DNA of 64,000 nt from Psammoneis japonica (GCA_008632985.1 QPGO01000127.1:62001-126000), one strand, 5' to 3'. Counted from the first letter of the stretch, positions 1-34,284 are shown. Notes: a model not told the origin generated them from the letters alone. Translations and numbers: made by a program.

Positions 1-905
1 TTTTGCTTGCGGACAACGCGATCTTTGGGTTCAACAACGCGCGAGCGAGCGTCACCGAGATTCGCTGGACACAGCCGAACACCGAACACCGACCGACTGC
101 AGAACGCCATCTCCGACGACCGACCGACCGACGTCATCGCTCATTGTGTTGTGAGTGACAGCGAAACAACAAAACAATGGAAGGGCCATTGCACTCCGCA
201 CGTCCCAGGCATCGTCTCTGGCACTTCCCTTTCCTGCTGTGGTGTCTCTTGTGTTTTGTGCCACAGAACTCCTCCTTTCACACATGCACGACTGCTGCAC
301 CCTTCTTGCGGTTTTCTCCCCGGCCGTGCCGCCGCCAACTCAACTTTTGTTGATCATTTTGGGATCCACCACACCTGCTAGAAAGGTTGCACCACAGTGT
401 CCCCTACGTCAATGTCTGCTGCCTCTGCATGGTGACAGCTGGCTCGCGAGCAACTCTCTCCAAAACCTCCCCAATCAACTGGGCAAGCCCTTTGGCTCTT
501 TCTCTGTCTGCAGCATCACACCTTTCACAGCACTGCCCCCAGCAAAGCTACCCATCTTGCCAGGGAATTGTCCCACATCAAGAGCCAAGCCCCTCCTTTG
601 CAAGTCTGCTGACTGCACCATCACCGCCTGCACGTGTGCTGCAGCTGAGGGCCCAGTGTGTCTCCTGAGCTGCTGCGCTCTCACCTCCCTCTCCTCCATG
701 TGGCAGCTCCCCCACAAAAACCCCCTCACTGCCCAGTTCCTGCCCTTGTTGGGCAGAGGGGATGGGCTCTCTCTCTCTCTCTCTGCAATCTGTGATTGTT
801 GGCAATTGATGCGATTGTTTGCAGTTGATGTTCTGTTTCTGCATCCATCTTCAGTGCTGAGTGCAATGATGGCAGATCTCTCACCAGTGGCACCTGCCAC
901 TCTCT
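1..905. mobile_element. Unclassified degenerate repeat tract (TpA-depleted), truncated by the window edge
   Basis: Almost no TA dinucleotides and many overlapping Cys/His-rich, Tyr-poor spurious ORFs; normal composition resumes at ~905. Contains a (CT)n microsatellite at ~767-784. No recognisable protein domain. Confidence 0.45.
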
Positions 906-1412
906 AGAGAACATCTCTTGGGTGAGTGTCTTTGGTCTCAAGAATTTGCGCACCAGTTCGGAAAGGGCCAACGAAGAAATTCAGATTGTGGTTGCAAAAT
1001 AAGGTGGCAGCAAACACAATGCACGGTCTCACGGGAGCAACGCAGAACGCAGAATTTTCGCCCTCTTGACGCTTTTATCATAGTTTCGACTTGTACATCA
1101 CTTGGGTTATTCAGAAATGATGTGATTGTACGATACAGAGAGAATGGCACTCTACAGTAGTTACATTCCATAACAACGACACCCACTGGCTACAGCTTCG
1201 AACCAAAATGCCAAAACGTCTACCGTATAGGGTATGGTATTTGAACAAAAAGGTAAAAGCACCGCAAACTACACTAGCTAGCCCCTTGTAAACTTATACA
1301 TTATCTTATGCAATCATACATTTGAATCAAGGGTCTATGGCAATGGGTTGTGGTCAAAATGGTGCGTTTTCTAAAAAGCCAACTCAAACTACACTGTTGT
1401 CTACGTCTTGCA

Positions 1413-2247: not shown

Positions 2248-3292
2248 GTTGTTTGGTGTTTTGTGTGAACGGCGGCGTGATGCTTCTATTCCCATGCATG
2301 TTTTGCGCCGCGTTTTCAGTCGCGTTTGGGAGAATCTACTGTATACCACAACATCCATTCATGGATATAAATAAAAAGGTTTCCCGCCACTTCGAGTCCC
2401 TGGCTGCCACCTGGCCTGGTGTCGTAAGTTGGAACAGCTGCCGGCAGGGTTAGAGGCAGTTTTCGTCGTGCGGACAGACAGAGTTTCAGTGTACAAGAAG
2501 CACTGACGATTGTGGACAACGTGGCAAGTTTACGTTCGTAACTAGGATTGAGTTGCGGGTCTTGTGCTCACTTTTTAGCTTCTGCACCCAGTTGACATGT
2601 GGCAACGAGACAGCTGCTGGTGACATCAGTTGATGACATGTTTGCAAGCCAAGCGGCTAGAGCGAGCAGCAGCAAGCCGCGAATTTCCAACACAGAAGCC
2701 AAAAAAGTTGTGGCACAACACTCAAAGCAGTGGTGTCATTCAAGGGCTGGGGAAGTTGAGAGGAATCCACAGAACAAGAGCTGGGAAGTTGAGAGGAATC
2801 TGCAAATGAGGGCCGGGGAGTCAACAGGGGTCCCCAAAGGTGTGCCGCGTGTCGGCAGATCGCAGCAAACAAGCCGGGTGGATGAGGGCAAAGAAACAAT
2901 TTCTGGCGTGCTTTGCTGCCAAAGAAGCTGTTGAGGTTTGCTGAAAGAGGGTGCAGCAAGGTTGTGTTGGGGTTGGTGAGACAGATGGCTTTGTGCTCTG
3001 GTGTGGCGCTCTTGTCTCTTTCACTGCCTGTTCCACGCACATGAATTTTCGACAATGCACGCACGCATTGCACCATTGCTGTGGTGCCCCAACAACAGGG
3101 TAGACTTTGGTGGCATGGCAGCAAGAGTGCTCATGCACACGCCTGTGTGGGGCCTGCACTTTTTGCCAATGCATTCCTTGCTTTTCCAGCACATGTTGAG
3201 CAGATTGCTCCACAACAATTTGTGCTCAGTGCTGATTCCCTGTGTCTCTGCTTGCAACATGACCCTCACTTGTTTCTCCTTTTTTCTTTAAG

Positions 3293-3461
3293 TTGCGGAC
3301 TGGCAGTGTTGGGACAATCTAACGGATGTCTAGGACAGATGACAATCGTGCACTGGATGAGAAAGAAAGTGAGCAAAGGAGAGATCATCGGATCTCTCCA
3401 TGCTGTCCATGCCAGTCTGTCCGACACAAGGGAGTGTGCTCCCCATCTCGGATGTCTGTCA
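3293..3461 (-). repeat. 3' LTR of the Copia element
   Basis: Direct repeat of 10116-10286 (14 substitutions plus one 2-bp indel by manual alignment); begins TGACAG on the minus strand. Confidence 0.93.
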
Positions 3462-3470
3462 CCCTCCCCT
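3462..3470 (-). promoter_or_regulatory. Polypurine tract (PPT)
   Basis: AGGGGAGGG on the minus strand, immediately 5' of the 3' LTR. Confidence 0.85.
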
Positions 3471-3629
3471 GATGAGCAATGCAATGCTCAACAAGAAAGA
3501 AAGAGACGATCCAAATAAAAAGAGAGGACCAGAATGGCAAAGAACAAAACAAATGAAACAGAGACACACCCAAGACTCAATCCACAACAAACCCGACAAC
3601 AATCAACGGCAGTGTCCCATCAAGCGGCG

Positions 3630-4152
3630 GGCATGGCGGGAATGGAGCATTCAACCCACGGCCTTGGTCAGCACATCAGCAGGGTCAATGACACCCGGGA
3701 CATGTCGAGTGACAATCTTGCCCATGTCACGCCAGTCTTGGATGGCAAAATGTTGAACATCAATGTGACGAGATCGCTCCGCAGGCACCTTGTTGTTGAT
3801 CATCTGGATGGCAGAGGAGTCATCAATGTGCAAGGGAGCAGGATCACGTTGGGGAAAACCCAATTCTTCCAGAAGTTACAGCCGCGAGGAACTCAGCTTC
3901 CATGGAGCTGGTGGCGGTGATCGTTTGCGCGTGGCATCGACAGTCAATCGCAGCACCAGCAAGGACATGCGCATGGCCAGCAGCAGAACGGCGACGCCAC
4001 AGTTCATTGCCATGTGCCGCATCAATGAATCCAAGAAGTTGGAAAAGGTCAACAGCACAAGGAAAATCCAGGAGAGATGGGTCATCCTTGAACCATTCAA
4101 AATCGCGAGGAGGCAGGCCGGGATCGCGTTTGGACTTCTTGCAGGTCAGTCC
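3630..4152 (-). pseudogene. Copia RNase H region (disrupted)
   Basis: ORF 3651-3863 carries IDDSSAI...ERSRHIDVQHFAIQDW...PADVLTKAVG, the Ty1/Copia RNase H C-terminal motifs. Confidence 0.85.
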
Positions 4153-6924
4153 TCAATGTTTGGCACGGCACAAATGCTTGGCCATGCGCTTGAGTGAATC
4201 ACAATGGAGCTCAGCCGGTGCCTTGGAAAACTTGGACAAGGTGACAATGGGACATCCAATGTCCAAACGACAACAGGAATGGGCAAAGACCAATTCACCC
4301 AAGACAGAACGATGCGAGAATCCTTGGGACTCAGCAAGAGTGTTGTGCTCGGGTGCACCCTCTTCAGGACCTTCAGTGGCACACAGATCAGGAATGCAAT
4401 CAACCGGAACAGGTGCAGCCTTGAAATCAGAATCAGATTCATGTGCAGCGGGAGTGTCCCAACCATGGGTCTTGAAAACACGGTCAAGGCAGCTGGCAAC
4501 GTTGACAGTGATTGAGTCGTCATTTTGAATGACATCAATGCCATTGAATTTGGCAACCAAGCCCAAACACTTGAAGGGAGGAGTGTCCTCATTCTCCATC
4601 TGGAGAGCCCTGCCAACATGGTCGTAGATCTCTTTCGCAATCTTTTCAGATGGACAAGCAAGAGCAAAATCATCAACCTGATGAAGGAGGAGGACCTTGA
4701 CACCATCACATTCACCGGAACAGACACACTTGTCATGAGCAGTGTTGCGGAAAAGAAGTTTTGCACCCGTGAGAATCGAGTTGATGTGCTTCTCCCAGAG
4801 GACACCAGCTTCAGGATGGCCTTGAAGAGCATGCTTGAGCGGGAGAACACAATGGCGGGGTGCTTTCTTGCCAAATCGTTTTTCACACCAGGCAGCACAT
4901 GCATCATCAACAGCAACAAAAACCGGTTGGGATGGGCCAGGAGAATGAGCACAGGCATCCCGTGCATCACCGCCAAAGACACGATGCGACACAGCCGCAC
5001 TGAGAGCGAAAAACATCTTTTCGACAGAACGTTCCACACACGATGAATGGGTGGAAGTCAACTCATGCAAGGCCGGCATTGCCGACTTGGAACCATCATC
5101 ACATTGTCGGGAGCGACGTTGGCCATCCGGCTTTGCCATGTGATCCCAATGCGGACGCATGACATTCGCGCCAGGGGGACGTGGTTGCAGAGGACCACAC
5201 ATGCCCAGGGCACAAAATTGGTCCAGTTGACGCTGCTCGCCTTCTTCCCATTCAGGCCATGTGTCAAGTTTGTGAAGCTTGGCACGGGTGAGATGGTCAA
5301 GAGCAGCTTCCTCTGGAGTGAGTGAGCGAGAGCCAATCGCACCGAGATGTGCATAAAACACATCCGCAGGGACAGCCTCATTGGAAAAATCATCATCAGG
5401 ACAGAGAAGAGCCGCAACAGATCGCACATCCTCCAAAGCAAGTTCAGGAACATGAGAGTCGTCCTCCGTGGAGTCCGGCTCAAATGACTCCGCTTCCTCA
5501 AATGCCTTGTTAAGAGTGCAAGAATCCAATCGTCGTTCCGGCACAAAAGCAATCTCGAAAGTCGGAATTTTGTCATGAAAGACCTGAGATGAGGCCTCTT
5601 CAGCATACGAAGGAGTAAAGACTTCACGCTTGTTGACAGAGACAACACATGCACCCACAATCTTGTTGCGAGTGGCACGGAGGGAAGAAAACAATGAAGC
5701 GGCAGGACTGCGCTGCTTGATGTCCGACACATGGACACAGTCCATTGGCGCACACTGAGAAAATCCAAAACCACAAGTGGGGTCCTTTGGAGGACGTTTC
5801 ATGGTGCATGCAACAGTCGCAGCAAATGGATTTGACGAAGACGCAAACATGGGAACGGTGGTGTCCTGTGTTTCAGCTGGAAAAGGCTGACCATTTTCCA
5901 CACGCTGTAAATGGATGGCATTGGGAGGGAGTTGATCCAAAAACAGGTCATTCGTGCCTTCATCGCAGCGCACATGCTTGGCCGTCTTGACTTTGTCAGT
6001 CTCAGGATCCCACCACACAACATTCTTGAGGGTGTTGGGAAGGCAACCAAGGAAGACACCCTTCTTGGAATTGGTCCGGAAGGCAGCAGAATGAACAGTG
6101 GACCGTTTGGACCACACTCGACATCCAAAAGTCTTCAGAGCAGCAAAATCTTTGACCTTTCCGGCAGCAAGAGTGACAGGTGCCGCATCTTGTTCTTTTG
6201 CAGGAGTGGCATTCTTGGTGCGGAGGCAGTGGTAAAATGCATGGGGCCAGAATCGGATCGGAAGGTTGGCACCAATTAAAATCGCATGAGTCGCATTCTC
6301 AACAGTTGAATGTGAGCGTTCAACAGGCCCACATTGGTTGGATGCGCCAGCGCCAGAAGGACAGATGTCATGCTGGAATTCTTGTGCAAAGAGGTCACGA
6401 ACTTTGGGGTTTTTGTACAATTCCCCACCTTGGTCCACAAATGCATGTTCATCACGACAATTCGGTGAATGTCGATCCAAGAATCGGCGAAGCCACTTGT
6501 AAGGACTGGCCTTTGAAGCCCTCGCTGCACCATGGAGCATCCACGTGTGATGATCACAGACAGCAATCCAACATGTTTCACCATCACATCCAAGACAGTC
6601 AACCTTTGGAAGTCTGGCCAGCAAAAGCAAAATCGACAGTGAGACCTTGGTGTGGTTGGGTCGCCTTCCGAGTCGTGTTCGGTCCAGCAGGAGTCTTGAC
6701 TTGCTTGGCTTGGATGCACGCAGGGCATGCATCAAGGACGGGATTAGCATGACAGAACTTGGGGATGCCCTTGATGTGCTTGTGAGCATTGTGCAAGCAG
6801 TGATCACTGGGGTGTCCAAGGCGTTGATGCCACAGAAGACGTTCAGTCTCAACCTTGAGAGAGCGGATGGGAGCAGGGGCAGACAATGGAGCCGAGTCAC
6901 ACTGCATCGAAAACAGCTCAGCAT
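4153..6924 (-). CDS. Copia pol: GAG-pre-integrase, integrase core and reverse transcriptase (hypermutated, probably non-functional)
   Basis: LWHQRLGHP (in overlapping frame 6599-7240), VDQGGELY, QCGPVERSH, FWPHA, KTFGCRVW, KKGVFLG, LKHALQGHPEAG and HQVDDFALA (RT catalytic motif). Confidence 0.92.
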   Translation of the reverse strand: MLSCFRCSVTRLHCLPLLPSALSRLRLNVFCGINALDTPVITACTMLTSTSRASPSSVMLIPSLMHALRASKPSKSRLLLDRTRLGRRPNHTKVSLSILLLLARLPKVDCLGCDGETCWIAVCDHHTWMLHGAARASKASPYKWLRRFLDRHSPNCRDEHAFVDQGGELYKNPKVRDLFAQEFQHDICPSGAGASNQCGPVERSHSTVENATHAILIGANLPIRFWPHAFYHCLRTKNATPAKEQDAAPVTLAAGKVKDFAALKTFGCRVWSKRSTVHSAAFRTNSKKGVFLGCLPNTLKNVVWWDPETDKVKTAKHVRCDEGTNDLFLDQLPPNAIHLQRVENGQPFPAETQDTTVPMFASSSNPFAATVACTMKRPPKDPTCGFGFSQCAPMDCVHVSDIKQRSPAASLFSSLRATRNKIVGACVVSVNKREVFTPSYAEEASSQVFHDKIPTFEIAFVPERRLDSCTLNKAFEEAESFEPDSTEDDSHVPELALEDVRSVAALLCPDDDFSNEAVPADVFYAHLGAIGSRSLTPEEAALDHLTRAKLHKLDTWPEWEEGEQRQLDQFCALGMCGPLQPRPPGANVMRPHWDHMAKPDGQRRSRQCDDGSKSAMPALHELTSTHSSCVERSVEKMFFALSAAVSHRVFGGDARDACAHSPGPSQPVFVAVDDACAAWCEKRFGKKAPRHCVLPLKHALQGHPEAGVLWEKHINSILTGAKLLFRNTAHDKCVCSGECDGVKVLLLHQVDDFALACPSEKIAKEIYDHVGRALQMENEDTPPFKCLGLVAKFNGIDVIQNDDSITVNVASCLDRVFKTHGWDTPAAHESDSDFKAAPVPVDCIPDLCATEGPEEGAPEHNTLAESQGFSHRSVLGELVFAHSCCRLDIGCPIVTLSKFSKAPAELHCDSLKRMAKHLCRAKH

Positions 6925-7246
6925 CCATCAGCAAGGGATCAGATGGACCTTGTTGGACGTTGATGAAAAACACTGCACGTTGACATGCATCGTCAACATC
7001 ATCAACCAAGGATGAGTCAGGGGTCGTCGATGTCGAGGGGACACCAGACGGAGATGGAGGAATCAGGGGTTGTGTGAACACCTTGCCATGTCGAAGTGCA
7101 CCATGGACAACCACCGCTTGTGCATCAGTGGAAGCAGTGCAAGTGCAAGTGCCATCGGCACATGTCTTCTCAAGGAGCTTGGAGCGAATGGACTGAGATT
7201 TGAAACCAGAAGCCCGCGCAAAATCACGTTCATCAATCAAAGTGGA

Positions 7247-8229
7247 TCATGGACTGGGATGGTAAAAAGTGCGCATGAGAAGAAAGCCTTCAGGGTTGTC
7301 TGCAGGTGCCTGCAGGCATCCAAAGCCATGAGGAACCGCATCAGAGCCTTCAGCAGCCGGAAGCATCTTCAAAGGGCATGGGTCATCTGGTCCAAAAGGA
7401 GCACATGTGTGGAGGAGGTTCTTGTCCCCTGTGCAGGATGCCCAAGCACCAGCATCAATCTGTGCACGATGTGTCGTTGAATCACGAAGCACATGATTGA
7501 TGGGAACGACTGGGGCAGTCAAGGATGCAAAGGTCGCAGGTGACTCCGGGGGAGAAAAAATCGGGGAGATGCGCACGGCACTGAGAGGCGACAAGTGCTG
7601 GGTGTTAGTCACATCAAGACACTCAAATGGTTGGTCCTGATCAGTGGACAATGGAGTGTCAGCATCCAATGCAGGAGGATCGAATTCCCTCCCCTGATTG
7701 TGATTGCCAGGGTCATCATCAGGAATCGTCTTGGGATCAGGAGCACCAGCCTTTGTCGAGCTCGAAAGAAGGGCAGCAAATGAGACAGGTGAAAGAGGAG
7801 GATCAGCGGAAGGTGACAAGTCATTTTGACCCTCTTTCACAGTTGCCCCGCTAGCAGGAGTTTTCGGATTGGAGGACAATGGGCAGCATTGTTTGTCCGA
7901 ACATGACAATGGCCCCAGGAAAAATCCTTCTTGGCCGTGCCAGACTGAAGTGCATCACGAGCACGCTGGTCACGTTGAAGAAACTGGGAGAACCGAGTGA
8001 GATGGGTGCGCAGGTGCTCAGCATCATTCAACACAGGACACTCATGGAACAAGTGGTTGTCACCACAAACAACACATGGACGGTTCTGTGCAATGGCAGG
8101 CGAGGACTTGATCCTGCAGATGCAGGCCTTGTGGACACCGTGGAGGGCTTGTGCATCATCATCTGGAGGAACATCCACAGTGGCAAGTTCATTTACAAAG
8201 CACTCCACAGTTTCCGCAGGTTTGTCCAC
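7247..8229 (-). pseudogene. Copia gag zinc knuckle and aspartic protease region (frameshifted)
   Basis: CVVCGDNHLFHEC (CCHC knuckle) in ORF 7837-8229; AQIDAGAWASCTG (protease D-x-G-A motif) in ORF 7247-7909. Confidence 0.75.
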
Positions 8230-8670
8230 AGGAGGAGAGTCAGATTCCTTGGGAGAGTCTTCAATTGCTGGAGGCGGAGCAGAAACTTCATCCTGGGGGA
8301 CCGCAGACAGGAGCTGCGAGAGGAGGAGGAGGCGACAACGTGGAGGACATTTGGGAGGGTCCTTGACACGCAGAGCTGGACTGTCCGGTTCCTTGAGAAT
8401 GGCACTGATGGTTTTGACAATCTTCTTCTGGGTGAACTTGTGTTGTTGGGTCTTGTCTTCCCGGGCATCCGCTGTTTTACGGTGAAGGCACTCACCACAG
8501 CGGGCATTGCTGAGAAAAATGTCAAGCTCACCAGGGTCATCAAGAGATGCACCAACATTGGAGATGACAGCTCACAGCTGAAGGCAGTCTCTGAAAAGAG
8601 CACAATGGCCAAGGACCGTGAGGTTGTTTTGGTGCGGGTGGCTCTTGATCAACTCATGCGGGCGCTTCGT

Positions 8671-9912
8671 CTAAATCGGCAGAATGTCAAAGAGAATCAT
8701 CTTGATGGCTGCGTGTCCATCACCGTGACATTGGCGAACAATGTCAGGGCACTTGGAGTCTGTCGGAAAAATTCCTTTTTTCTGAATGTGCTGGAAGACA
8801 GTCAGTTTCATTTGGTCAAGTGGTGCCATCATCCGGAGAGGCAGATCATCGGTGGGATCATTGCCACAAGTGAAACCCCAATTTCCACCATCCTTGACAA
8901 AACACCACAGAGGGCGCATGTGTGCACCACAAGCCGAGGCTTGTTGGGTTGCAGCAATGCACCATGCATGGATTCCTTGAGGGGAGATGTCATCACAAGT
9001 GAGATGATCGCGAAGGAATGATTTTGCATCCCAGTCAGTGCGATGAACAAAGAGTGAGCCATCAGTGAGAATGAGACGCTCAGTGCCATCCTCGCAACAA
9101 AGGTTTCCAGACTTGTGTGGTGCCAGGGATTTGCCAAGTGCTGCTTTCCCAGCTTCCTTGCGCTGACAGCGGGCCAGCACATCCTTTGGAAGTCCTTTCG
9201 GATTAAAGGTGCACACAGCACTGGCAGCAGTCAATGAAGAAGCCACACCAGCAGCAGTCATGGCAGACGGTGCAGGAGACAACACCTTGGGAGCAGAGTT
9301 CTTCAATGCGTTTGTCACGGCTTGCTCAAACTGTTTTGGACCAGGTGAGTGAGCAGCCAGGGCCTTGGCAAAGTCCTCAGGAGTGGGACCTGTGGCAGCA
9401 ACTGGTGCAGGTGCAGAACTCAAAGCAGTCGGTGGATCCGGGTGCGGATCATCAGAGATGTCATCCCAGCAATCACAATGTCGAAAACGAGGGATGAAAT
9501 GGAAACGCAGAGTCCCAACATGCAGATGCATGGTGTCGTCGTTCTCTGAAATTGCCTTGATCACAGTCTTCTGAAGAGCACTGAGGTTCAGACGAACCGG
9601 GGGGCCTTGAGGAGCAGCCACAAAGAGAGGAGCCTTCTCAATGATCGGTCCAATTCGTGCAAGACCCTCAGTCTGGAGAGCTTCAGGGATGATGAGATTC
9701 TGAACAATCTTGTGTCGAAGGACAGCAACAGCGTCGCTCTTGAGGCCTTGAGGGGTGAATCCATCCAAAAGATCTTCAGGAGCAGGGATCTTGTCCGAAC
9801 AAAGAGCATTCAGGAAAATGTGGGCATCGGGCATGCGATCATGTGGGCTGAATTCAACCCGCATTGTCTTGATCTTGGTCAAATCGACGGCGTTTGGATT
9901 TTTGTTCACCAT
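8671..9912 (-). CDS. Copia gag N-terminal region
   Basis: Long ORF just downstream of the 5' LTR/PBS (ATG at 9912, MVNKNPN...). Assignment is by position within the element. Confidence 0.7.
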   Translation of the reverse strand: MVNKNPNAVDLTKIKTMRVEFSPHDRMPDAHIFLNALCSDKIPAPEDLLDGFTPQGLKSDAVAVLRHKIVQNLIIPEALQTEGLARIGPIIEKAPLFVAAPQGPPVRLNLSALQKTVIKAISENDDTMHLHVGTLRFHFIPRFRHCDCWDDISDDPHPDPPTALSSAPAPVAATGPTPEDFAKALAAHSPGPKQFEQAVTNALKNSAPKVLSPAPSAMTAAGVASSLTAASAVCTFNPKGLPKDVLARCQRKEAGKAALGKSLAPHKSGNLCCEDGTERLILTDGSLFVHRTDWDAKSFLRDHLTCDDISPQGIHAWCIAATQQASACGAHMRPLWCFVKDGGNWGFTCGNDPTDDLPLRMMAPLDQMKLTVFQHIQKKGIFPTDSKCPDIVRQCHGDGHAAIKMILFDILPI

Positions 9913-10105
9913 GGTTGCGCGGGAAAAAAAATTAAATTCCTGTGCAGAGCTCTGGCATGTGTTCTGCGGTGGTCGTTTGATCACAAATCGAGAGGTGAAA
10001 AAACAGCTGTGACAATGATGACGATTTCAACGAAGAAAAAATCGCCAAATCACACAACAGGCGTTGCAACAGAGGAGCACAGAGGAAGAGGAACAGTGCA
10101 CTGCT

Positions 10106-10115
10106 GCTCATGACC
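10106..10115 (-). promoter_or_regulatory. Putative primer-binding site (half-tRNA-iMet type)
   Basis: GGTCATGAGC directly after the 5' LTR resembles the GGTTATGGGC PBS of Drosophila copia-type elements, with one TA->CA change. Confidence 0.55.
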
Positions 10116-10286
10116 TTATGGACTAGCGGCATCGGGACAATCTAACGGACATCTGGGACAGATGAGACAATCGTGCACCAGATGAGAAAGAAAGTGAGCA
10201 AAGGAGAGATCATCGGATCTCTCCATGCTGTCCATGCCAGTCTGTCCGACACAAGGGAGTGCACTCCCCATCTCGGATGTCTGTCA
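10116..10286 (-). repeat. 5' LTR of the Copia element
   Basis: Direct repeat of 3293-3461, flanked by the TSD copy TCAAG. Confidence 0.93.
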
Positions 10287-13200
10287 TCAAGTGCCTGGGT
10301 GTTCCAGGCTCTTTTGCCTTCAGTGCTCTGTCATCCTTGAGAAATCATGAGGCATGTTCTCCAGCTCCAGGTGATGATGAGCTTTTCATCATGCAAGATT
10401 TTCCATGCAGTTTTCAGCACCAGACAATCTTGTCTCCACCCGGCAGAGCTCACACTTTTTGGCTTTTGGTGAGCAACAATTGTTTTCATGTTGTTGTGCA
10501 TTTGTGACAAAAGTGCATGTCTGCAACAACTAAGGTGCACATTTTGTCACAGAAAAAATGGCATCACTTGGCATTCAATGTTTTTCTGGTGATGCACAGA
10601 ACAAACAATGCTGACTTCCATGAGCTCATGTGCCGCCCCCACGTCAAAAACACCCAACACACAATGTCAGCCACAACATCAGCCACAATGCAGCACACTG
10701 CTGTCAGGTCTGGTGGGCCTTGACATGGAGCCTCACGAGGAAGAAGACAGCTGCTGCTGGGACCAACAAAACAGATTCAAGCAAGCCAGTCAATTTGTCT
10801 TCATCTCAGCCAGCAGCAAGCAGAGTGCAGCACATGTTTTGTCCCTGTTCAAGACATCAGCTGAAAAGTGAGAACTCTGGAAATTCTGGAGCAGGAGAGC
10901 TCTTCAAAAAAAGCTCTCATGGTTTCTAAAAGCTTTGGGGTCACACGCCACTCTCATGTTTGGTCAAATGATTGTTTTTGTGAGGGAGCTTGTGCCGATG
11001 GAAAATGTGACAACATGCAGCAATCGGATGACCTCAAAATCTTCAACCAATGCCACAGGCTTCCCGTTGAAGCCAACAAAAGCACACACATGGAGAGCAG
11101 CATGCAAGACACTCCATTTGCCCTTGCCTCAATGAGAAAGTTGCCACTGCAATCATCATCTTGAATGAGAAGCATCACATGGTCAACAAATGGAAGCAAA
11201 TGACAGACAGATGGACTTTGTGGCATGGACACTGCAGCACTGCACAGGTGGGGGCCAGCGGGCGGGGTGATGGAGCAAGTGGAGCAGAGTTTGAGATGAC
11301 ATTGGACTTGCACTTGTGTTTTGGGTTTTGGACCATGTCCAAGTCCCTCACTCCTTCCAATGGCATGTCCAAACTCACCAAGAAAGCTCTTCCAAGCTTT
11401 CAGCTTGAGCTCCTGGTTTTGAAGCATGGGGATCTCAGTCACCTGGCATGGAAGAGTGGATCTGTGCCTTGCAACCCTGAATGTCTTCATGTGATCAACG
11501 CCTCAGAATTTAAGAGTCCTCAGTTCAACAAAGACGAAGGTTCTGATGCTGTTGTTTCTGATGCCTTGCTGCCCATTGACTGGAGGAACCCCGTTTATGA
11601 TGAGGATGACAACAGGTTCAATCTCAAGAACAAAGTTCACTTGCCACTTTCACGGGCGCTCAAACAGAATTGCAACATGACTTTCTTGCATGATTGCAAC
11701 AGCTGCATTGTGGCCGGTGCTCAGGACACCATGGTGGTTTCTGCAAGTGAGCTGGAAACTCAAGTTGTTTTTAAAGAGAAGAGCAAAAGCCTCACTCAGC
11801 ATTTGTTGGGTTCAGTTGGCACAACCTTTCCCCAAATTTGCAAGTCTGGCCAAGAAGCATTCATTGAAGGAAGACCCATGAAAACCAACACAGCTGGATT
11901 CTCTTGTCCTCTCATTCTTGCCCAGCTTCTGGAATGCATGGCAGCTGAAGCTGCTGCATGCAGTGTCATTGTCACTTCTGGATGAGCTTGCTTTGTTTGG
12001 GTTGAAGTGGGGCAGGAGCAAAATGGTTGCAAAGAGACACCAGCAAAGAAGCAAAAAGGCACAAAGAAAAAGGTTCCTGCATTGGCAGTTTCAAGTGAAG
12101 CAACAATGACAAGTGGCGCGCACTTGACCAAATCCATCAAAATTGATGACGCTCACTTTCTACATGTCATGCACAACTTCACATTTCAGACCAAGGAGGG
12201 TTGCATGATGGACAAAGGATTGACAGCCACCAAACTGCTGAATGCCCCCTCTTCAAATGGAGGGTTTACCCGAGGTGAATCACAAGACAACAAACCTCAA
12301 ACAAGAAACCAGCTGACATCAGTCAGGTGCCTGATTTGTTCAAGCAGTGGTGTTGCAACTTCTTTGCCAGGTGCGAGGTGATCTGTGATCTCCAGGTTTC
12401 CGCTTGTTCCTTGTTTGTGCAAGACAAGAGTTGTTGCCAAAACCTTGGGTCAAAACAGGGAAGGTCAAGTGCCGGCTGCAAATTGGAGCAGTGTTTCAGC
12501 TGCGGCAAAGGTTGTCAGCCTCTGGAACAATGTGCGTGAACAAATGCATGCACGATGTGTTTTTGAAGGTGAAGTCAAAGCCTCTGCAAATTGGCTGGAC
12601 TGGCTGGTCTGTGGGGCTTGGCTGTCCCACAACCCACAACCTTTCTTTGCAGCAACGGATGACAAGCAGTGCATCCCTTGTGTCCAGCTTTGGGTGACCC
12701 AATGCCACTGGATCCCAAGATGTGGACCACTTCTGAGCTGAGACAGGTGACTGAGAGTGCTCTTCTTCTTTTTGAAGCTGGCGCTGAGTTGAGTGACATC
12801 AAACCTGCCAACTTCATTTGCATCACCAAATGCAATGTTGTCAATGCATCACAGTGCACTGAAGAACAAAGGGTTGTTGCAGTTGAACTCAAGCAGCTTT
12901 TCATGGAGGCAGAATCTGACTGTTTGAAGCTCCCAGAATGGATGTTTGAGAAAGCAAAAGCAAATGCTGTGTCTCCTGGACAATGGACTGCTCAACCAGG
13001 ATGTGTGCTCCCTTCCACACACCAATCAGTTGTCAAGAGAAAGGAACAACTGAGCTGCAATGACCTCTGCACACAAGCCTTGTGCAGGTGCAGCTTCAAC
13101 AGCCACATCTTCTTTGTCTTCACTCATTGCAATGAGTCCACTTGCAGACGGGTTTGCAGCTGTTCTTGTGCATGGATCTCGATTGTCATTTGCCATTTCC

Positions 13201-14502
13201 ATTTCTGATTTGAGCATGACTGGCCAACCCTGCATGCAATGTGCTTGCAGTTGCAAAAGCACTGAGTTCAAATTTGAAAGACAAAGGTTTGAAATTGTGC
13301 AACAGTTTTGACCTTGTCATTTGTCCTTCACACTTTTTTCTTCATGTGGCTCTCCATTGACTTTTTGACTGACTGCAAAGCAAAGCCACTGCCCCTTCCA
13401 TGATGGGGCTCTGTTCACAAAGACTGGGGTTTTTGCTGGCTTCATCTGTGAGTTGCACTTGCCCACTTCCTTGCAACCACACTTGGCATCAGAACAGCAC
13501 GAGAGTGAGAGTCCCCCAACGGGAGCCATTTTTGCCAAATGATTCCAAGTGCTCAGAATGACTGTCTGTTGTGGCACAGCAAAATCACCATGAAATTTGT
13601 TGAGCTTGCCAAAAAATGACAACTCTCCTCCTTTCACACTGAAAAGTGACAAGGTGAGCATCTCCTGGAAAACGCCCCGCACCAGCCACGCCACACCAAA
13701 GCCCAAGAAGTGCTGTGTGCTTGGTGCTGTGCTTTGCTGATCATTTGATGGTGGCAGCCATCAAGAAGCCACTGTGGGTGCACCAATCATCACACACAAT
13801 GGTGTGCATTCATTTGCAAATAATGGAAAATTTCTCAGCGGCCCTGCCCGCCGTTGCACATTGCTGAGCAGCAGCGGGCACTGCCAACCATTGTTGCCAC
13901 ACCCCTTTTTTGACACAAACACACAAGCCAGCAGCACCCAAAGCATCACTGTCATTTGTGTGACAGCAACAATGTGTCTTGATCACACATTGCTGCCAAG
14001 TGAATGTGATGCATTTGACACCAAAATAACGCGAGTCATTGTGGCCCAAACACTGCAACGTCGTCACGCTCAGCTCGGAGCTCGAACTTTTTGGAATTTT
14101 AATCCTTTATCCAACTTTGAATATCACTAAAACACCAAATTTGGTTAGCATCTCCGTTGTGTTACAACATACTAGTCTTCACGTAAATAGAATCCAGTAG
14201 GACGTCTACAGCAACGACAAAAATGGCAAACCACACGAAACTCCACACGAGTCGTCACACGAGATCAGTGACTGTGCCCAGGCATTCGGTATGGAGGGCA
14301 TCATTTCTGGCCCCTCTTTGTTGCAGCCCTCATACTTTTGGCTGGAGACACAAACTCAGGAAAAGGAAGGGGGAAGGAAGAATTCGTGCACGATTGAACT
14401 GAGCTGTGTCATCCAATCGCTGTTCCCGCTTTTCTATTCCAGAAGCCGCGGAGCAAGACAGAGAAATCGAAAAAAGAGGACGGCACTGAACGATACTGTA
14501 GA

Positions 14503-20405: not shown

Positions 20406-20529
20406 AAAAGCGAGATTCGTCGCTTGGGGCTAACTACTAACTACTAATCGATGCATTGACAAGGCTTCGAACGCTCCACGTGTTCTCAAACTAGCATCCA
20501 TGTTATTTCTTTCAATCGAATCATGTTAT

Positions 20530-21760
20530 CTTTTCGGTGAAGCTGCCGCTGAGTTGGGGTCTGCAATGTGAGCAAGATGCTCGAGGTGGAATCCGCTGGC
20601 CATTTCATCATCTGTGTGTCTTCAGTGTTGATCTTCCAAACTTTGCTGTCAACACACACATGCCATGAACAATGCAGGTGACAGAATCTAAGATGTGTGC
20701 AGTGACAGTGCATTGGACACCCAAAAAATTGAGTTGGAGATCTGGTCAAAGATCTGTCTGTAAGTTCATGTGTGCCTCTCATGCAGGTGGAGGGGATGCC
20801 AACACCCTCCCCTGACATGCCATCTTCCCAGCAACATGACAAAACACAAAGCACAGCATCCCAAAAGAGAAAAAGTCAGACAGCAAATCCAAATGTTGCC
20901 AGGAGTGTTGAAGAAGAGGTGCACAGGTTTGGGGGGTTTGTGCCAGCACACATGGCTTGTGCCAGGATCATGCCCAGCGATGCGTTTTTTGCAATCCCGA
21001 GCCGGCCACACCACTGGCGCCAGATGGGTTCCAGCCCCAGGTGGGGCTTTTTGTGACATTGGGCCCGCAGAATTCTGCGTGCGAGCTCCTCAGTAAAATT
21101 GTTGAGCAATGGACATGTGAATGATCGCCAACAGAAAAAGAGGCAATTTTGCGAACGCATCTCCTCCTCCACACTTGAAGTGCATTCTTTGCAGTGTGCC
21201 CAGGTGTGTTCTTCAGACATCAAAGAACACACCCAGCGCATTTTTGTTGACACAAATGCAGACAACAGAAAGCCTTTGGCTTCACAAAACAGGCAGTGTG
21301 GAACAATTTTTTACAACAAAACACGTAGAAATGTGCGTGCAAAACATGCGATGGATGACAAAAAAATGATTGTGTCACAGTTCAGTGGTGTGAGATCCCA
21401 CCTGCAGCTGGAGCACGTCGCCACACCAGAGAAGAGTCGCAAGAGCAGAGGAAGGGGAACAAATGCTGTTCACACCCCCTGGGAACCCACACACATTGGC
21501 TTGATGACAAAATGCACTGTGATGTTGGCTCCAAAGTCTCTTGAGGACATTCTCGCCACACAAGAACAAGAGGTGTGTGTGGGGTGGTGGGGGCGTCTCA
21601 TGAGGCATCGTTGGTTGAAAGGTTGCTTTTTGCGGCGGCTTTGCAAGACAGTCTCCTCTGCTCATTGCCTTTTGTTCGAACATTTTTTGAGCAAAGCAGT
21701 GCCGATTTTCAACCGAAAATGTCATTGTCATCTCTCATTAATTTTCTGTTGCAATGAGGT
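20530..21760. mobile_element. TpA-depleted degenerate repeat island containing a nested MITE
   Basis: Local loss of TA and CG between the bestrophin and HSF genes; contains the MITE at 21023-21419. Confidence 0.55.
21023..21419. mobile_element. ~400-bp MITE, copy 1 (4-bp TSD GCCA)
   Basis: Imperfect ~24-bp TIRs (GATGGGTTCCAGCCCCAGGTGGG...CCCACCTGCAGCTGGAGCACGTC); GCCA at 21019-21022 and 21420-21423; colinear homology with 24383-24782. Confidence 0.85.
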
Positions 21761-23340: not shown

Positions 23341-23468
23341 TGTGAAATATCTGCTCGGGGACTAGTTTGTTAATAAAGTTTTAAGCTGTTTTTACATGAA
23401 ACACTGTTGCTCTTATTCCTTTGAATCACACAACGCGAGATCGAGATTACTACAGCTTAAATCTCTAG

Positions 23469-24973
23469 TGTGAAAGCCTCACAAACTGAATCGCCTCTTG
23501 GTGAAGAGACATGTCATATCTCGTTTACGGGATAATGATTTGGTACATCTGCCAGGCATTCGTACAACAAAGAAGTTGATGTCACTTCAGTTATCTCGCA
23601 TGGAATTCACCAACTGTTCGAGCTCATTCAAACTCTGCCAAGTCTTTTAGATCCATCACTCTCTGCGCAGCGACATCAAAATCCAGCTTCGCGATTCGCG
23701 CGACGATAAGTGAAATGCAGATGACGACATTGGGGGGGTTCGCATGGGCCTATACTTTGGAGCGAAGTGAAAGATGATGTGGACCCAATCGCCGCGCGCG
23801 CACACATTGGGGGGACACGTCAGACACCAATGTGAAAGCCGTAGCCTCACAAACGGAATCGCCTCTTGGTGAAGAGACATGTCATATCTCGTTTACGGTG
23901 ACAGGACAATGATTTGGTACATCTGCCAGGCATTCGTGCAACAGAGAAGCTTGATGTCACTTCAGTTGTCTCGCATGGAATTCACCAACTGTTCGAGCTC
24001 ATTCAAACTCTGCCAATCTGTCAGATCCATCAATCTCTCTGCGCAGCGACATCAAAGTCCAGCTTCGTGATTCGCGCGATGACAAGTGAAATCAGATGAC
24101 AACATCAGGGGGGTTCGCACAGGCCCATGCTTTGGAGCGAAGTGAAGGATGATGTGGACCCAATCGCCGTGCGCGCACACATTGGGGGGGCATGTCAGCA
24201 GTGTGAGAGCCTCACAAACTGAGTCGCCTCTTGGTGAAGAGACATGTCATGTCTCGTTCATGGTGACAGGACAATGATTTGGCACATCTGCCAGGCATTT
24301 GCACAACAGAGAAGCTTGATGTCACTTCAGTTGTCTCACATGGAATTCACCAACTGTCCGAGCTCATTCAAACTCTGCCAATGACGGGCTCCAGCATTCC
24401 CAGGTGGGACTCCGTGTGACATTGGGCCCACAGAATTCCACGTGCAAGCTCCGCAGTGAATTTGTGCTGCAATGAAAACACAAATGATTGCCAACAGAAA
24501 AAGAGACAATTTTGCGAATGCATCTCCTCCTCCACGCTTGCAGCACATCATTGATGGTTTGCCCGGGTGTGTTCTTCAGACATCAAAGAATGCACCCAGC
24601 GCATTTTCATTCTCACAAATGTTGAAAATAGAAAGCCTTTGGCTTCACAAAACAGGGAGCATGAAACAATTTTGTAGAGTGCGACACACAGAAATGCACG
24701 TGCGCGACATGCGACACGATCCAAAAAACTGTTGATGTCACAGTGCAGCAATGCGAGGTCCCACCTGGAGCTGGAGCACGTCCAATCTTTTAGATCCATG
24801 ACTCTCTGCACAGTGACATCAAAACCCAGCTTCGCGATTCATGAGACGACAAGTGAAATCAGATGACAACATTGGAGGGGGGTCGCATCGGCCTGCACTT
24901 TGGAGCGAAGTGAAAGATGATGTGGACCCAATCGCCGCATGCTCACACATTGGGAGGGGACACGTCAGACACC
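23469..24973 (+). repeat. Three tandem copies of a ~365-bp unit; the third is interrupted by a MITE
   Basis: Copies start TGTGA(A/G)AGCC at 23469, 23831 and 24202; copy 3 resumes at 24783 after a 400-bp insertion. Confidence 0.92.
24383..24782. mobile_element. 400-bp MITE, copy 2 (4-bp TSD CAAT)
   Basis: TIRs GACGGGCTCCAGCATTCCCAGGTGGGAC / GTCCCACCTGGAGCTGGAGCACGTC; CAAT at 24379-24382 and 24783-24786. The empty site (CTCTGCCAATCT) is visible in tandem copy 2. Confidence 0.92.
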
Positions 24974-27900
24974 CAGCAACTTGTCAAGCCCCCGCCCACT
25001 GCCACATGCGCACCACCTTGCCCATGCTGCATGTGTTCCCAGCATGTGCAAATGCATCTTCAATCAGATTCAAAAACACAGCTCATGATGAGTGGGATGG
25101 GATGTGTCCCACGCATGAGTTTTGGGCATGTCCCTCCAGCCACCTGCTGCAGCTGGTGCTGGTGGGTGTCCAGGCTGTCACATCTTGTGGGGGGATGAAC
25201 TTTTGTTTTTAGGCTGGCAGCACCACGTCTGGAACCCCGCTCCCAACAAGAGCACAGCAAGTTGCAAGAGAGATTTCTCAAATTGCGCAGCTGATTTTTG
25301 CGTGCATTCATGAAATTGCACTCCTGCAACATTTAAACTGAACATGTTTCAACTTGCGTGTGGCCAATCTTTTTTGCATTTTAACATCACAAGCTGACCA
25401 GCCAAGACCCACCTGCCCTGTTTGAAGAATTCTTCCCATTGCGCGCTGCTTCATCAAACAAACAACTTGATGTCAACAACACAAGCTGGCAGCTTGGAAG
25501 AGTTTGAAACCATTCCAGAAGAGCGAGAGCCACACAGCTTCTTGTGTGAAGCCCAAAACATGACACAGGCAGCAACTGGAGAGAGGCTCCCACCTCACAC
25601 TTTTTTGTTCCACCCCAAGTGCTCTCCAGGTGGGGCACATTGACGCGCCATCAGAGCTGGGCATTTTTGAACAAAGACAGGCATGGCACAAAATTTGCTT
25701 GACATTTTTGCACAACAAAAATCATGTTAGAGAAACACTGTTGTGTGGCACAGTTGACACAAGGAGAAAATTGCTCACACACTGGAATTTGCCGCAGTGA
25801 GTTTTTTGGCCATGCTGAAGAGCATGTGAGTGGACCTTGGCCTTTGAGCATGGTGGCATCCAGCCAACAATTGCACTGCAAAGCTTCCGTTTTTTTGTTG
25901 TTTCAAATGTGCAGCTGCTGCTTGTTCTGGGAAACAATTGCCCCAACTTGTCAAAAAAGAGTGCAGCCCAGCTGCAAAGCAAGCGACGCTTGTCATCCAG
26001 CAGCTTGGCTTTTGTGCCAACAGCCTCAGCAGAAGTTGGCCAAAAAAAATGCAGACAAGTTTGGCAGAAATTGGTGGGAAAACAAAAAAATGCAGACAGC
26101 TGTGACACAAGATGAAGCACTGGGCATTTGCAAGGCAATGACTTGTTTGCAAGAGCAGCAGATCTTGCTTTCCTGGTGCTCTGGGTGAGACCTTGTGGTG
26201 CTGGGCCGTGGCAGAACTTTTTTCACATGCTGCACAAAAGCCACGCACATTCCTGCATGCATGAGCACTCTTTTGAAATGTTGTTCTACACACACAGCAT
26301 TTTGCAAAACCAACAAAATTTTGTTTTTCAATGATTTCCAACAGCAGAATCAGGCTGATCACTGACTTCAATGTTCAGTGTCTGAAGAAAGCAACTGAAA
26401 CACCAGAAATGACACAATCCAGGCATGAGCACTTGAAGTCAGCTGCAAAATTGCACCCTTTTTTGTTGGGAGTTGCTGGCCCACTCCTTGCCCAGTGGGC
26501 TCTGAGCAATGTGGAAAACTGCAGATTTCTGCATGTGAGCTCTGCACTCTGCAGTTCATGCACCAGGTGATGAGTGCATTTGTTTTTGACATCTGAGCAA
26601 ATGACCAAGCTTGCGGTGCATTGTTTGTGCCTCTCAACACTCAAAGAAGTTTTTGGAAGTCTGCCTGCATTGTGCAGCTCTGCTGTCAAAGGTTGTCGAG
26701 TTGATTGCCCAATGACTGTGCTCATTTTTATGAGCTCCAATTTGCAGAGAAGTTCACTGTGAGATCTGCTGCATTTTCACATGGTTTGTGCCAATTGCTT
26801 CACAGGGTGACATCATTTGACATCCCCGCCAAACTGTTTTTCTTTGGACACAACACATTTTTGCTGGACAGAGAGAACTGTGGGCACATTTTGCACAGCA
26901 CACAACTTGCAGATTGTTGTGTGCAGGGGTGCAGAGACAACCTTTTGGCAAGTTCCACTGCAGCTGCGCATGATGCAGCCAAGCTGACAGGCAGTGCACC
27001 TCGCTGGTTGATCAGGGGCAGTTGTGCTGCAAAACAATGCAAAATGTCATCAAAGTCATGTGGTGTGCAGAAGTGCATGTGCGCGACACATGGTGCATGA
27101 CAAAAAAGTCAAAGTCAGAGTCAGAGTCAGCGGTGTGAGGTTCCACCCAGAGCTGGAGTGCACTGCCCAGCAACTCTTCTGCAGAGCTTGCACACAGAAC
27201 TTTGTGGTCCTGACATCACAGGGGATGCCTCGGCCCACTTGCATGTTGACAACACAGACTGCACTTGCCAGTGTGGGTCCAATGTGGCACAGCTGTCGTG
27301 AGGTCGCATTGTGGGACCAAAAGAGATGCTGCACAAATTGACCAACAATGAAAAAACATTGACGATGCCTGCAACATGTTCCTGTGCTCAACAACAAGAA
27401 AATCAATGAACAGCAGCCACAATTTTTGCGTTTGTGGTTGCAATTTCCACAGACACCCCATTTGCTCAAACTTTGACCATGCTTCTTTCTGTTGTGCTTG
27501 CTCATTTAAAAGTCACACATCTGGCATTTTTCTGAAAGTTGTTGGTGTTCACAGATTGCAGCTGTGGCTGCATTGAATGTGCAACGTCTCATTGTGTGAA
27601 GTTTCATCTTGTCAAGAGTGCACTCATTTGGTTGGAAGACCTTCCATTTGATTGCCCATTGTCTGCATTTCAGGGTGTTTCTTCTGCACTTGTCTTTCTT
27701 TGCTTTGTTGGACACCACACAACTTCTTGTCTGCCAGCCCATTGTTCCAGCAACAATGGTGTGCCTTTGCTGCAACCTGGTTGCATGTCTCACAACAACA
27801 ACAAGTGTGCTCTCCAGATGTGTGCTCATCTTCCTTCTGGCTTGGCCTCAAGATCTCCCAGCCATTCCCTTGACTTGGTGGGCTCTGATGGGCTCACATC

Positions 27901-33900: not shown

Positions 33901-34200
33901 TGTTTGTTGAAAAAGAGAGCCGGGGGGAGTGCAAAAGCACTCCTCTCTCACCACTGCAAGACACAACAAGGGGGGTGTCAAACATCTTCCCAAAAACATC
34001 TTCACTTCCTCAAGCAAAAGTCTTTCAACCTGTGTCTGTTTTCTTACCTTCACAATCCAGACTGCTGGCTTTGGCTTGTGGTGTGGCGCCTGCGCGATTG
34101 GTGAATGCGCGAGACAGCTGGAAGGTGTCGAGATGCAACGGGCGCGCGCGCGCGGGGCCGAGCGATGAATTTTCGAAGAATTTCTGCGGCGGATCAAAGC
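24974..34200. mobile_element. Long, heavily degenerate unclassified repeat tract depleted of both TpA and CpG
   Basis: About two dozen TA dinucleotides in ~9 kb by eye, few CG, and an excess of TG/CA. Only short Cys/His-rich spurious ORFs. Confidence 0.6.
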
Positions 34201-34284
34201 GATCTGGCTGGCACAAACATTCTAAACAGCACAAGGCAAAACATCAAGAGGACATCCTTCTCACAAAATCTTGAGAGAAAGTGA

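Follow-up and report, generated by a model that had tools for sequence, protein, structure and literature searches.

We analyzed a 64,000-nucleotide window of the genome of the diatom Psammoneis japonica (GCA_008632985.1, QPGO01000127.1:62001-126000; positions are counted from its first nucleotide). An earlier note had drawn attention to a 923-amino-acid (aa) open reading frame (ORF) on the minus strand at 4153..6924, and had proposed that the Tyr codons of a Copia pol gene were erased there to Cys and His codons. The ORF is the integrase–reverse transcriptase (RT) part of a degenerate, multi-copy Ty1/copia long terminal repeat (LTR) retrotransposon at 3293-10286. It matched Pfam SH3_retrovirus (1.5e-9) and, with 23.2 bits, RVT_2, which is under the cutoff of 31.6 bits (the homologues score 39-41 bits), and the ORF just upstream on the same strand (6599-7240) matched gag_pre-integrs (3.4e-8). 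The domain order on the minus strand, gag_pre-integrs, then SH3_retrovirus, then RVT_2, is that of Copia elements, with the integrase upstream of the RT. A protein search retrieved 17 relatives, most of which are complete Copia polyproteins (1200-1560 aa; 42-50% identity); the homologues have the Pfam domains PF13976, PF25597, and PF07727. The best named relative was from the diatom Cylindrotheca fusiformis. The top-scoring relative, P0001, is annotated as a hypothetical protein from a metagenome-assembled genome (MAG) of a Flammeovirgaceae bacterium; its contig is probably eukaryotic (diatom-type) and ended up in that MAG by contamination. In its LTRs, 5-bp target-site duplication (TSD), order of gag, protease, integrase, RT, and RNase H, and set of Pfam domains, the element resembles the CoDi-type Ty1/copia elements of diatoms.

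When the relatives were aligned to the window with tblastn, the pol region of ~1270 aa was split over three frames (7417/7624-6602, 6600-3865, and 3860-3612), indicating two frameshifts. Three in-frame stops, all TGA, were found in codons starting at 7249, 4155, and 3653, where the relatives have Arg, Trp, and Trp, respectively, and none of them is the product of a TpA change. At the last of these codons, other family copies in the sequencing run have C at 3651 and read TGG (among the differences listed). The proposal that Tyr was erased without new stop codons thus held for the TpA changes themselves, which created no stop, but not for the pol gene as a whole, with its TGA stops and frameshifts. 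In the gag region, a zinc-knuckle-like string of Cys and His residues (CxxC...H....C) was seen in the translation near 8000-8100, and no convincing tRNA primer-binding site was recognized beside the 5′ LTR. The summed contig depth was 1265-4790 in the bins over 3336-10672 and ~35-70 over the flanking DNA, indicating that the Copia family is multi-copy in this genome.

The 923-aa ORF contains only 6 Tyr (0.65%), in agreement with the half dozen noticed earlier, together with 44 Cys and 43 His; in the 17 homologues, Tyr makes up 2.5-4.5% and Cys 1.3-2.8% of the residues. We aligned 15 relatives and mapped the element onto them codon by codon. At the 34 columns in which at least 60% of the relatives have Tyr, the element retains Tyr in 3 and has Cys in 16, His in 11, Phe in 3, and Trp in 1, whereas 477 of the 636 columns with another conserved residue were unchanged (Fisher P = 4e-15). 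When only columns with at least 80% conservation were considered, none of the 16 Tyr were kept (8 Cys, 7 His, 1 Phe), and Gly was retained in 46 of 47 columns, His in 21 of 21, and Glu in 18 of 18. The erasure of Tyr to Cys and His, counted here against other substitutions in an alignment to Copia proteins, is therefore confirmed, and the 15 relatives carry Tyr, rather than Cys or His, at the positions concerned. Counting of this kind, with the other conserved residues as controls, is preferable to reverting TG/CA to TA and rescoring the HMMs, as the note suggested, since a residue restored to the consensus of a profile necessarily scores higher and the argument would be circular. With two frameshifts, three TGA stops, and 31 of 34 conserved Tyr lost, this Copia copy is dead.

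Nine motifs had been cited as examples of lost Tyr, and eight of them have a Tyr majority or co-majority at the Cys or His position. Tyr occupies this position in 12 of 15 homologues in DARDACAH, 10 of 15 in FWPHAF, 9 of 13 in PFKCLG, 14 of 15 in FSHRSVLG, and 13 of 15 in DIGCP; in GVFLGCLP, Tyr and Phe are co-majority residues (7 each among 15). In DKCVC, the second Cys replaces a Tyr found in 15 of 15 homologues, but the first Cys is not in a Tyr column, and in AKHLC, the His replaces Tyr (14 of 15), but the Cys derives from an Arg present in 15 of 15 homologues, by a CpG change. The ninth motif, HIDVQHF, is no clear case: its first His is invariant, and at its second the relatives have His (7) or Tyr (5).

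These losses are part of a wider change at the DNA level. The interval 3630-6924 contains 12 TpA dinucleotides, compared with 188.6 predicted from base composition (observed/expected [o/e] 0.064; Poisson P = 7e-34 against a background o/e of 0.6). We counted the conserved pol columns that could be explained by a single unambiguous base change (122; another 66 were ambiguous). Among these changes, 44 were A>G, with a preceding T in 40, and 18 were T>C, with A as the next base in 14, which bears out the earlier reading of TAY→TGY/CAY as a TpA change. The same context was found outside the Tyr codons: of 28 non-Tyr A>G changes, 24 were preceded by a T at the end of the previous codon (chance share 0.26; P = 8e-11), and these converted Ile to Val, Thr to Ala, Asn to Asp, and Lys to Glu. 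On the sense strand, 11 of the 27 Tyr losses to Cys or His were T>C changes. CpG transitions formed a second class, which comprised 7 of the 10 C>T and 9 of the 20 G>A changes, or 16 of the 122 inferred changes in all. The change is therefore one of TpA to TpG or CpA in general and is not specific to Tyr. The loss of Tyr to Cys and His while other residues are kept is its protein-level signature, which is stark because Tyr codons (TAY) are preferred targets.

The depletion of TpA extends well beyond the Copia. Four zones of the window, designated A–D (Table 1), together contain 69 TA in 23,883 bp (2.9/kb), compared with 1,335 in 32,969 bp (40.5/kb) in the gene-bearing DNA between them, and their edges, located from TpA counts per 250 bp and from individual TA positions, are sharp to ~100 bp. 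In the zone windows, the TA o/e was 0.00-0.10 and the CA and TG o/e were 1.4-2.2; the TA o/e of the whole window was 0.37. The CpG o/e was 0.45-0.77 in the Copia and 0.08-0.30 in the other zone DNA; within the Copia, CpG (o/e ~0.55) was much less depleted than TpA (0.06). The zones end within about 100-400 bp of host ORFs, and for one host gene of the window (35420-37612), the nearest named relatives, at ~50-53% identity, belong to Thalassiosira and Skeletonema, as expected for a diatom outside these two genera. The part of zone B at 10673-14026 has single-copy depth (~35-72 over 10673-14007), and because the zones include single-copy DNA there and at 1-1000, copy number alone is not the trigger. 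The process is thus regional and not specific to the Copia.

Apart from pol, the zones have little recognizable content. None of 25 zone ORFs outside pol that were compared with Pfam had a match above threshold, and one had a sub-threshold match to DUF7445. In particular, ~14 kb of zone DNA (10673-14026 and 23919-34222) has a TA o/e of 0.00-0.07 and a CpG o/e of 0.08-0.30 and contains open frames in all six frames. This DNA may once have been an old transposon, a viral insert, or something else, and its partly single-copy state does not mark it as foreign. At the left edge of zone B (2548-2939), the run contigs contained many alternative joints and loose ends at a depth of 652-1192, which suggests a variable short-repeat region or another repeat family.

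The effect on stop codons followed from the nature of the change, as had been predicted: a change of TA to TG or CA makes no stop and can delete TAA and TAG. The zones contain 65 TAA and 35 TAG, compared with 552 and 580 in normal DNA, whereas TGA remains and is slightly enriched (1138 vs 1227, in less DNA). Open frames of at least 100 aa, counted in all six frames, occur at 3.7/kb in the zones and 2.2/kb in normal DNA. The view that elements are disabled by missense changes while their ORFs stay long was upheld insofar as the frames are open, but the gain in length is modest (mean stop-to-stop distance 36.4 aa vs 26.7 aa), and ordinary damage is present as well.

Table 1. Parts of the Copia element and TpA-depleted zones in the window
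Feature	Position	Strand	Remarks
Left TSD, TTAAG	3288..3292		4 of 5 bases match TCAAG; sole mismatch TA vs CA
3′ LTR, 169 bp	3293..3461	-	Aligns with 10116-10286
Purine-rich run resembling a polypurine tract (element strand)	~3462-3472	-	Adjoins the 3′ LTR; read by eye
pol C-terminal segment (RNase H end), third frame	3612..3860	-	tblastn high-scoring segment pair (HSP), e.g., P0002 residues 1298-1380
In-frame TGA	3651-3653	-	Aligns to Trp
Main pol segment (integrase core, SH3-like, RT, RNase H), second frame	3865..6600	-	tblastn HSP, 48-50% identity
In-frame TGA	4153-4155	-	Aligns to Trp
pol N-terminal segment (protease and integrase zinc-binding region), first frame	6602..7624	-	tblastn HSPs
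In-frame TGA	7247-7249	-	Aligns to Arg; fits CGA→TGA
gag region and leader	7625..10115	-	Open frames without Pfam match; putative role, from position
5′ LTR, 171 bp	10116..10286	-	Aligns with 3293-3461
Right TSD, TCAAG	10287..10291		Sequence read
Zone A	1..1000		5 TA in 1 kb, dense TA from 1076; runs off the window; depth ~42-52, single copy
Zone B	2659..14026		Contains the Copia and flanking DNA; TA o/e per kb 0.01-0.10; sharp edges
Zone C, 1.2-kb island between two host genes	20528..21738		5 TA in 1211 bp
Zone D, TpA- and CpG-depleted	23919..34222		Left edge within the tandem repeat 23467-24973

The LTRs of the element record when these changes took place. When the two LTRs (169 and 171 bp) were compared, 14 mismatches were found in 171 aligned positions, all of them among TA, CG, TG, and CA. 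They include four TG/CA swaps, three TA/TG differences, and three differences between CG and TG or CA, and there were no substitutions of other types. Because the LTRs were identical at integration and now differ only at these dinucleotides, the DNA must have changed after insertion. The TSD has also diverged, reading TTAAG on one side and TCAAG on the other, i.e., TA versus CA.

The direction of the change can be read at the edge of zone D. At 23467-24973, downstream of an HSF-like gene (22429-23340), a sequence of about 365-376 bp is repeated in tandem, and because the left edge of the zone (~23919) falls inside the second copy, the array is a natural internal control for the mutation spectrum. 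Copy 1, which lies outside the zone, keeps TA at 7 sites that read TG or CA in copy 2 and at 5 sites that do so in copy 3; the reverse was found at 0 sites. At one site of the array, the inner copies differ in outcome (CGTGCA vs TGCACA). The direction is also seen in other copies of the Copia family in the sequencing run, which, among the differences listed individually, have T at 4725 and thus an Ile codon after T where the window has Val. Zone C is paralogous to 24399-24782 (80% identity), and the two differ by 12 TG/CA swaps.

To place the element among its relatives, we compared 80 metagenomic loci encoding related Copia pol proteins, which came from several unrelated metagenome assemblies. 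Their TA o/e ranged from 0.11 to 0.83, with values of 0.55-0.83 in normal relatives. At 135 TA sites of the reference copy L003, the most depleted copy, L071 (TA o/e 0.11), had 8 TA, 64 TG, and 47 CA, whereas in the reverse direction, only 3 of 16 TA sites of L071 were TG or CA in L003. Control pairs of normal copies were nearly symmetric (28 vs 44 and 25 vs 31). CpG changes were symmetric in all the metagenomic pairs, and TpA loss is uncoupled from CpG loss there. The protein signature recurred in the depleted copies: conserved Tyr columns read Cys or His in 22 of 26 cases in L071, 24 of 31 in L053, 23 of 35 in L012, and 22 of 30 in L076. In the copies with normal TpA, the corresponding numbers were 0 of 36 in L020 and 1 of 36 in L079, with Tyr kept at 35 and 33 of the 36 columns, respectively. 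Many copies were intermediate, and across the 80 loci, the Tyr-to-Cys/His share was negatively correlated with the TA o/e (Spearman −0.54), whereas ~0.8 of the other residues were kept regardless. The direction of the change and its specificity for TpA are thus backed by four independent lines of evidence, namely the non-Tyr codons, the paralogous repeats at the zone edge, the divergence of the LTRs, and the asymmetric metagenomic pairs. In one metagenomic copy (L053, 1-5400), the TA o/e stepped from ~0.5 (1-2000) to 0.07-0.30 (2001-5400) near the start of the pol match, which marks either a zone edge inside the element or a chimeric assembly of differently mutated copies.

The metagenomic copies also revealed the sequence context of the change. 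In five pooled pairs of mutated and normal copies, the conversion per TpA adenine depended on the next base and was 0.49 before C, 0.42 before T, 0.21 before A, and 0.21 before G. The TA that survive in the zones of the window agree independently with this preference for 5′-TAY-3′. YTAR, which is a poor context on both strands, accounts for 33 of the 69 surviving TA, compared with 205 of 1,330 TA in normal DNA, whereas RTAY accounts for 2 of 69, compared with 407 of 1,330. In the metagenomic copies, sense and antisense adenines were converted to the same extent, both before a pyrimidine (0.46 vs 0.44) and before a purine (0.19 vs 0.22).

TpA-specific hypermutation of foreign DNA has been described once before, in a 2026 preprint on the chlorarachniophyte Bigelowiella natans (Mettrop et al., bioRxiv 10.64898/2026.01.13.699255). 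Mutation-accumulation lines yielded 231 mutations in two viral regions integrated in its genome, of which 230 were A>G or T>C, all on TpA, and the rate was ~1000x background; TpA-depleted coding sequences were enriched for RT and DDE domains. Its authors proposed a genome defence, possibly by a DNA adenine deaminase, with an ADAT2-like enzyme as the candidate (bioRxiv 10.64898/2026.01.13.699255). The two cases are alike in that almost only A>G and T>C changes occur, at TpA, giving TpG and CpA, in regions with sharp contrasts in rate, which are foreign DNA in B. natans and may be so here, and in the long-term depletion of TpA with a gain of CpA and TpG. They differ in host (a stramenopile here and a rhizarian there) and in target, which is an LTR retrotransposon with adjacent non-coding zones here and inserts of nucleocytoplasmic large DNA viruses (NCLDVs) or virophages in B. 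natans. The depletion is also stronger here, near saturation (o/e 0.01-0.10), compared with 0.45 in the NCLDV region of B. natans. On the other hand, mutation was measured directly in the lines of B. natans, whereas here it is read from standing sequence. The present analysis adds the 5′-TAY-3′ preference, the strand symmetry, the Tyr-to-Cys/His signature, the post-integration timing, sharply bounded zones that take in single-copy DNA, and the graded series of environmental copies. None of the words context, trinucleotide, flanking, and diatom is used in the main text of the preprint, its supplements aside (bioRxiv 10.64898/2026.01.13.699255), and we found no report of TpA hypermutation in diatoms in open-access and bioRxiv texts. 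Taken together, the interpretation given in the earlier note is supported once three points are corrected: ordinary stops and frameshifts are present in the element as well, whole regions are affected rather than the Copia in particular, and a precedent has been published.

The sequence data show the signature, which way it runs, that it arose after integration, that it is limited to zones, and that related elements elsewhere share it. We conclude that the dead Copia copy and the zone surrounding it were very probably hit after integration by a process that converts TpA to TpG or CpA at the DNA level. According to this explanation, the element would integrate first, and a mutational process would then act on it and on the chromosomal zone around it. 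The process would change A to G on either strand, symmetrically and with a preference for 5′-TAY-3′, at a rate far above background mutation and near saturation. Such a high rate is supported indirectly by the LTRs, in which 14 of 14 mismatches fall within TA, CG, TG, and CA while TA is almost exhausted. TAY codons would be hit most readily and turn into TGY (Cys) or CAY (His) codons, Ile, Thr, Asn, and Lys codons following a T would become Val, Ala, Asp, and Glu codons, and TAA and TAG would vanish, so that the element would be inactivated by dense missense changes while its frames stay open. A slower decay of CpG to TpG or CpA would take place in the same zones. We infer that the zones are silenced foreign DNA, either methylated or heterochromatic, and, by analogy with B. 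natans, the process may be a targeted genome defence of the kind proposed there.

Given that the process is real, there is about an even chance that its effector is a DNA adenine deaminase of the TadA/ADAT type, which is favoured because such an enzyme would turn A into G directly. The tRNA adenosine deaminases recognize U33-A34, and the one found in bacteria recognizes UAC. An effector of some quite different kind is distinctly less probable, and thymine-directed chemistry, the main alternative, is somewhat less probable still.

Several points weigh against this interpretation. Because TG/CA swaps may stem from either an ancestral TA or an ancestral CG, the LTRs provide only ~3 unambiguous TA events. 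The estimate of the context preference is based on five pairs, three of which share the reference L003. Part of the TA loss in the family may predate this insertion: the other copies in the run differ from the window by transitions in both directions (A>G 126, G>A 147, C>T 117, T>C 108), and 40 of the 605 differences were listed individually. The runs containing the window represent one sample, which is probably the source of the assembly itself, so that their agreement with the window is not independent. Although it is one of several repeats, the array copy that adjoins zone D on the outside has escaped mutation, which speaks against recognition by homology alone. The idea of a deaminase is unproven even in B. 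natans, and the process as a whole is reconstructed from DNA as it now stands.

The alternative that survives best retains the regional TpA process but places the chemistry on thymine: T in 5′-RTA-3′ would be modified in silenced DNA, to 5-hydroxymethyluracil (5hmU) or a base-J-like form, and then converted to C by mispairing or error-prone repair. TET/JBP-type enzymes act on both 5-methylcytosine and T, dinoflagellates reportedly have an excess of 5hmU at TpA, and CpG decays in the same zones. Moreover, the signature is strand-symmetric, and A>G on one strand is not separable by sequence from T>C on the other. The uncoupling of TpA loss from CpG loss in the metagenomic copies argues against this alternative, as does the resemblance of the T-A-pyrimidine preference to the U33-A34-C35 recognition by tRNA adenosine deaminases. 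The only published proposal is adenine deamination (bioRxiv 10.64898/2026.01.13.699255), and we regard modification of thymine as unlikely.

If the retrotransposon RNA had been hyperedited from A to I in the manner of ADARs, or the cDNA edited, before integration, the element would have arrived already mutated. The equal conversion on both strands (0.46 vs 0.44) and the 11 of 27 Tyr losses that were T>C on the sense strand are contrary to this, as are the LTRs, which diverged only at TA, CG, TG, and CA, and the TA/CA difference in the TSD. Single-copy DNA in the same zones that is not a retroelement is equally depleted, and the 3′ pyrimidine preference is not that of ADAR. Such editing is therefore very improbable, even though retroelements have an RNA stage and ADARs favour U before the edited A, as the preprint points out (bioRxiv 10.64898/2026.01.13.699255).

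It is scarcely credible that no hypermutation occurred and that the family is inherently TA-poor or under selection against UpA in its RNA. The low TA o/e of the whole window and the values of only 0.55-0.83 in normal relatives might be taken in its favour, but Tyr was lost at columns conserved in 15 relatives and RVT_2 fell below its Pfam threshold, which selection for function would not bring about. In addition, non-coding and single-copy zone DNA is affected, sister copies span a TA o/e of 0.11 to 0.8, and the asymmetry between them is directional.

A sequencing or assembly artefact, in which a modified TpA base in heterochromatin is miscalled as TG or CA, deserves equally little credence. 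Some long-read base-callers are known to misread methylated motifs systematically, and the sequencing platform of the assembly and its runs is not on record. Nevertheless, five run contigs were identical to the single-copy zone DNA over 387-1624 bp (although the assembly may have been built from this very run), the outcome at one array site differs between paralogues, ordinary damage in the form of frameshifts and TGA stops is present alongside, and several unrelated metagenome assemblies contain related elements with this signature. The signature of B. natans was seen with Illumina data (bioRxiv 10.64898/2026.01.13.699255). Two further candidates, ultraviolet photoproducts at TpA and GC-biased gene conversion, were dropped by inference, as neither predicts sharp zones, saturation at a single dinucleotide, or spared adjacent genes.

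The process of TpA conversion can also be compared with other systems that mutate or silence mobile elements. Repeat-induced point mutation (RIP) of fungi is similarly an in-place hypermutation of DNA that inactivates transposons, produces distinct blocks of composition, and affects both strands. However, RIP is a C>T change mainly at CpA that makes TpA and many stops (PMC7296669), whereas here TpA is destroyed and TAA and TAG nearly vanish, just as the earlier note had claimed in calling the change the opposite of RIP. Moreover, RIP is triggered by duplication, whereas here single-copy zone DNA was mutated and the repeat copy outside zone D was spared. RIP is thus a functional analogue with the opposite chemistry, and the TpA o/e of 0.06 is not that of a RIP-affected sequence. 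ADAR, which acts on double-stranded RNA, and APOBEC3, which acts on cDNA, likewise deaminate bases against mobile elements in animals, but they do so before integration, strand-asymmetrically, and within the element, unlike the post-integration and symmetric change seen here, which extends into the flanks. Diatom transposable elements are known targets of CpG methylation (PMC9998398). The decay of CpG in methylated elements is alike in that a palindromic dinucleotide is lost to TpG and CpA in silenced repeats, and it takes place in the same zones; it differs in the dinucleotide and base concerned, is slower here, and is uncoupled from TpA loss in the metagenomic copies.

The occurrence of the signature at near saturation in a diatom, together with its graded environmental relatives, suggests that the process is widespread among ecologically dominant algae, and the erasure of TpA may be a widespread way of disabling invading DNA in marine algae. 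The TAY motif on both strands is a constraint that any candidate enzyme must explain. The loss of Tyr to Cys and His with other residues kept offers a simple protein-level diagnostic for affected elements in any genome, and annotators should be aware that such regions yield long spurious ORFs in all six frames. A broader view, which we hold tentatively and as somewhat short of an even chance, is that diatoms and, by extension, much of the stramenopile–alveolate–rhizarian (SAR) supergroup have a dedicated defence enzyme that is a natural adenine editor of double-stranded DNA. This enzyme would be aimed at zones of silenced chromatin and would owe its TAY specificity to descent from the deaminases of the tRNA wobble adenosine (U33-A34). 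Transposons and integrated viruses would be inactivated through the loss of Tyr codons and of TAA and TAG rather than through new stops, as a mirror image of fungal RIP, and the graded environmental copies would record how often each insertion was exposed. If the effector is indeed a DNA adenine deaminase acting on duplex DNA in chromatin, it would be of interest for base-editing technology.

A second retroelement was found in the window at 57100-62060, where an intact ORF of 1213 aa on the plus strand (58820-62461) matched Pfam RVT_1 (6.4e-10). The plus strand of this element is very pyrimidine-rich (C 1960, G 861, T 1409, A 731). Its TA o/e is 0.20, 19 of the 42 remaining TA are in CTAC, and its composition is 1.0% Tyr, 5.2% His, and 3.1% Cys. 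This element may be partly affected by the same process, or it may be inherently skewed.

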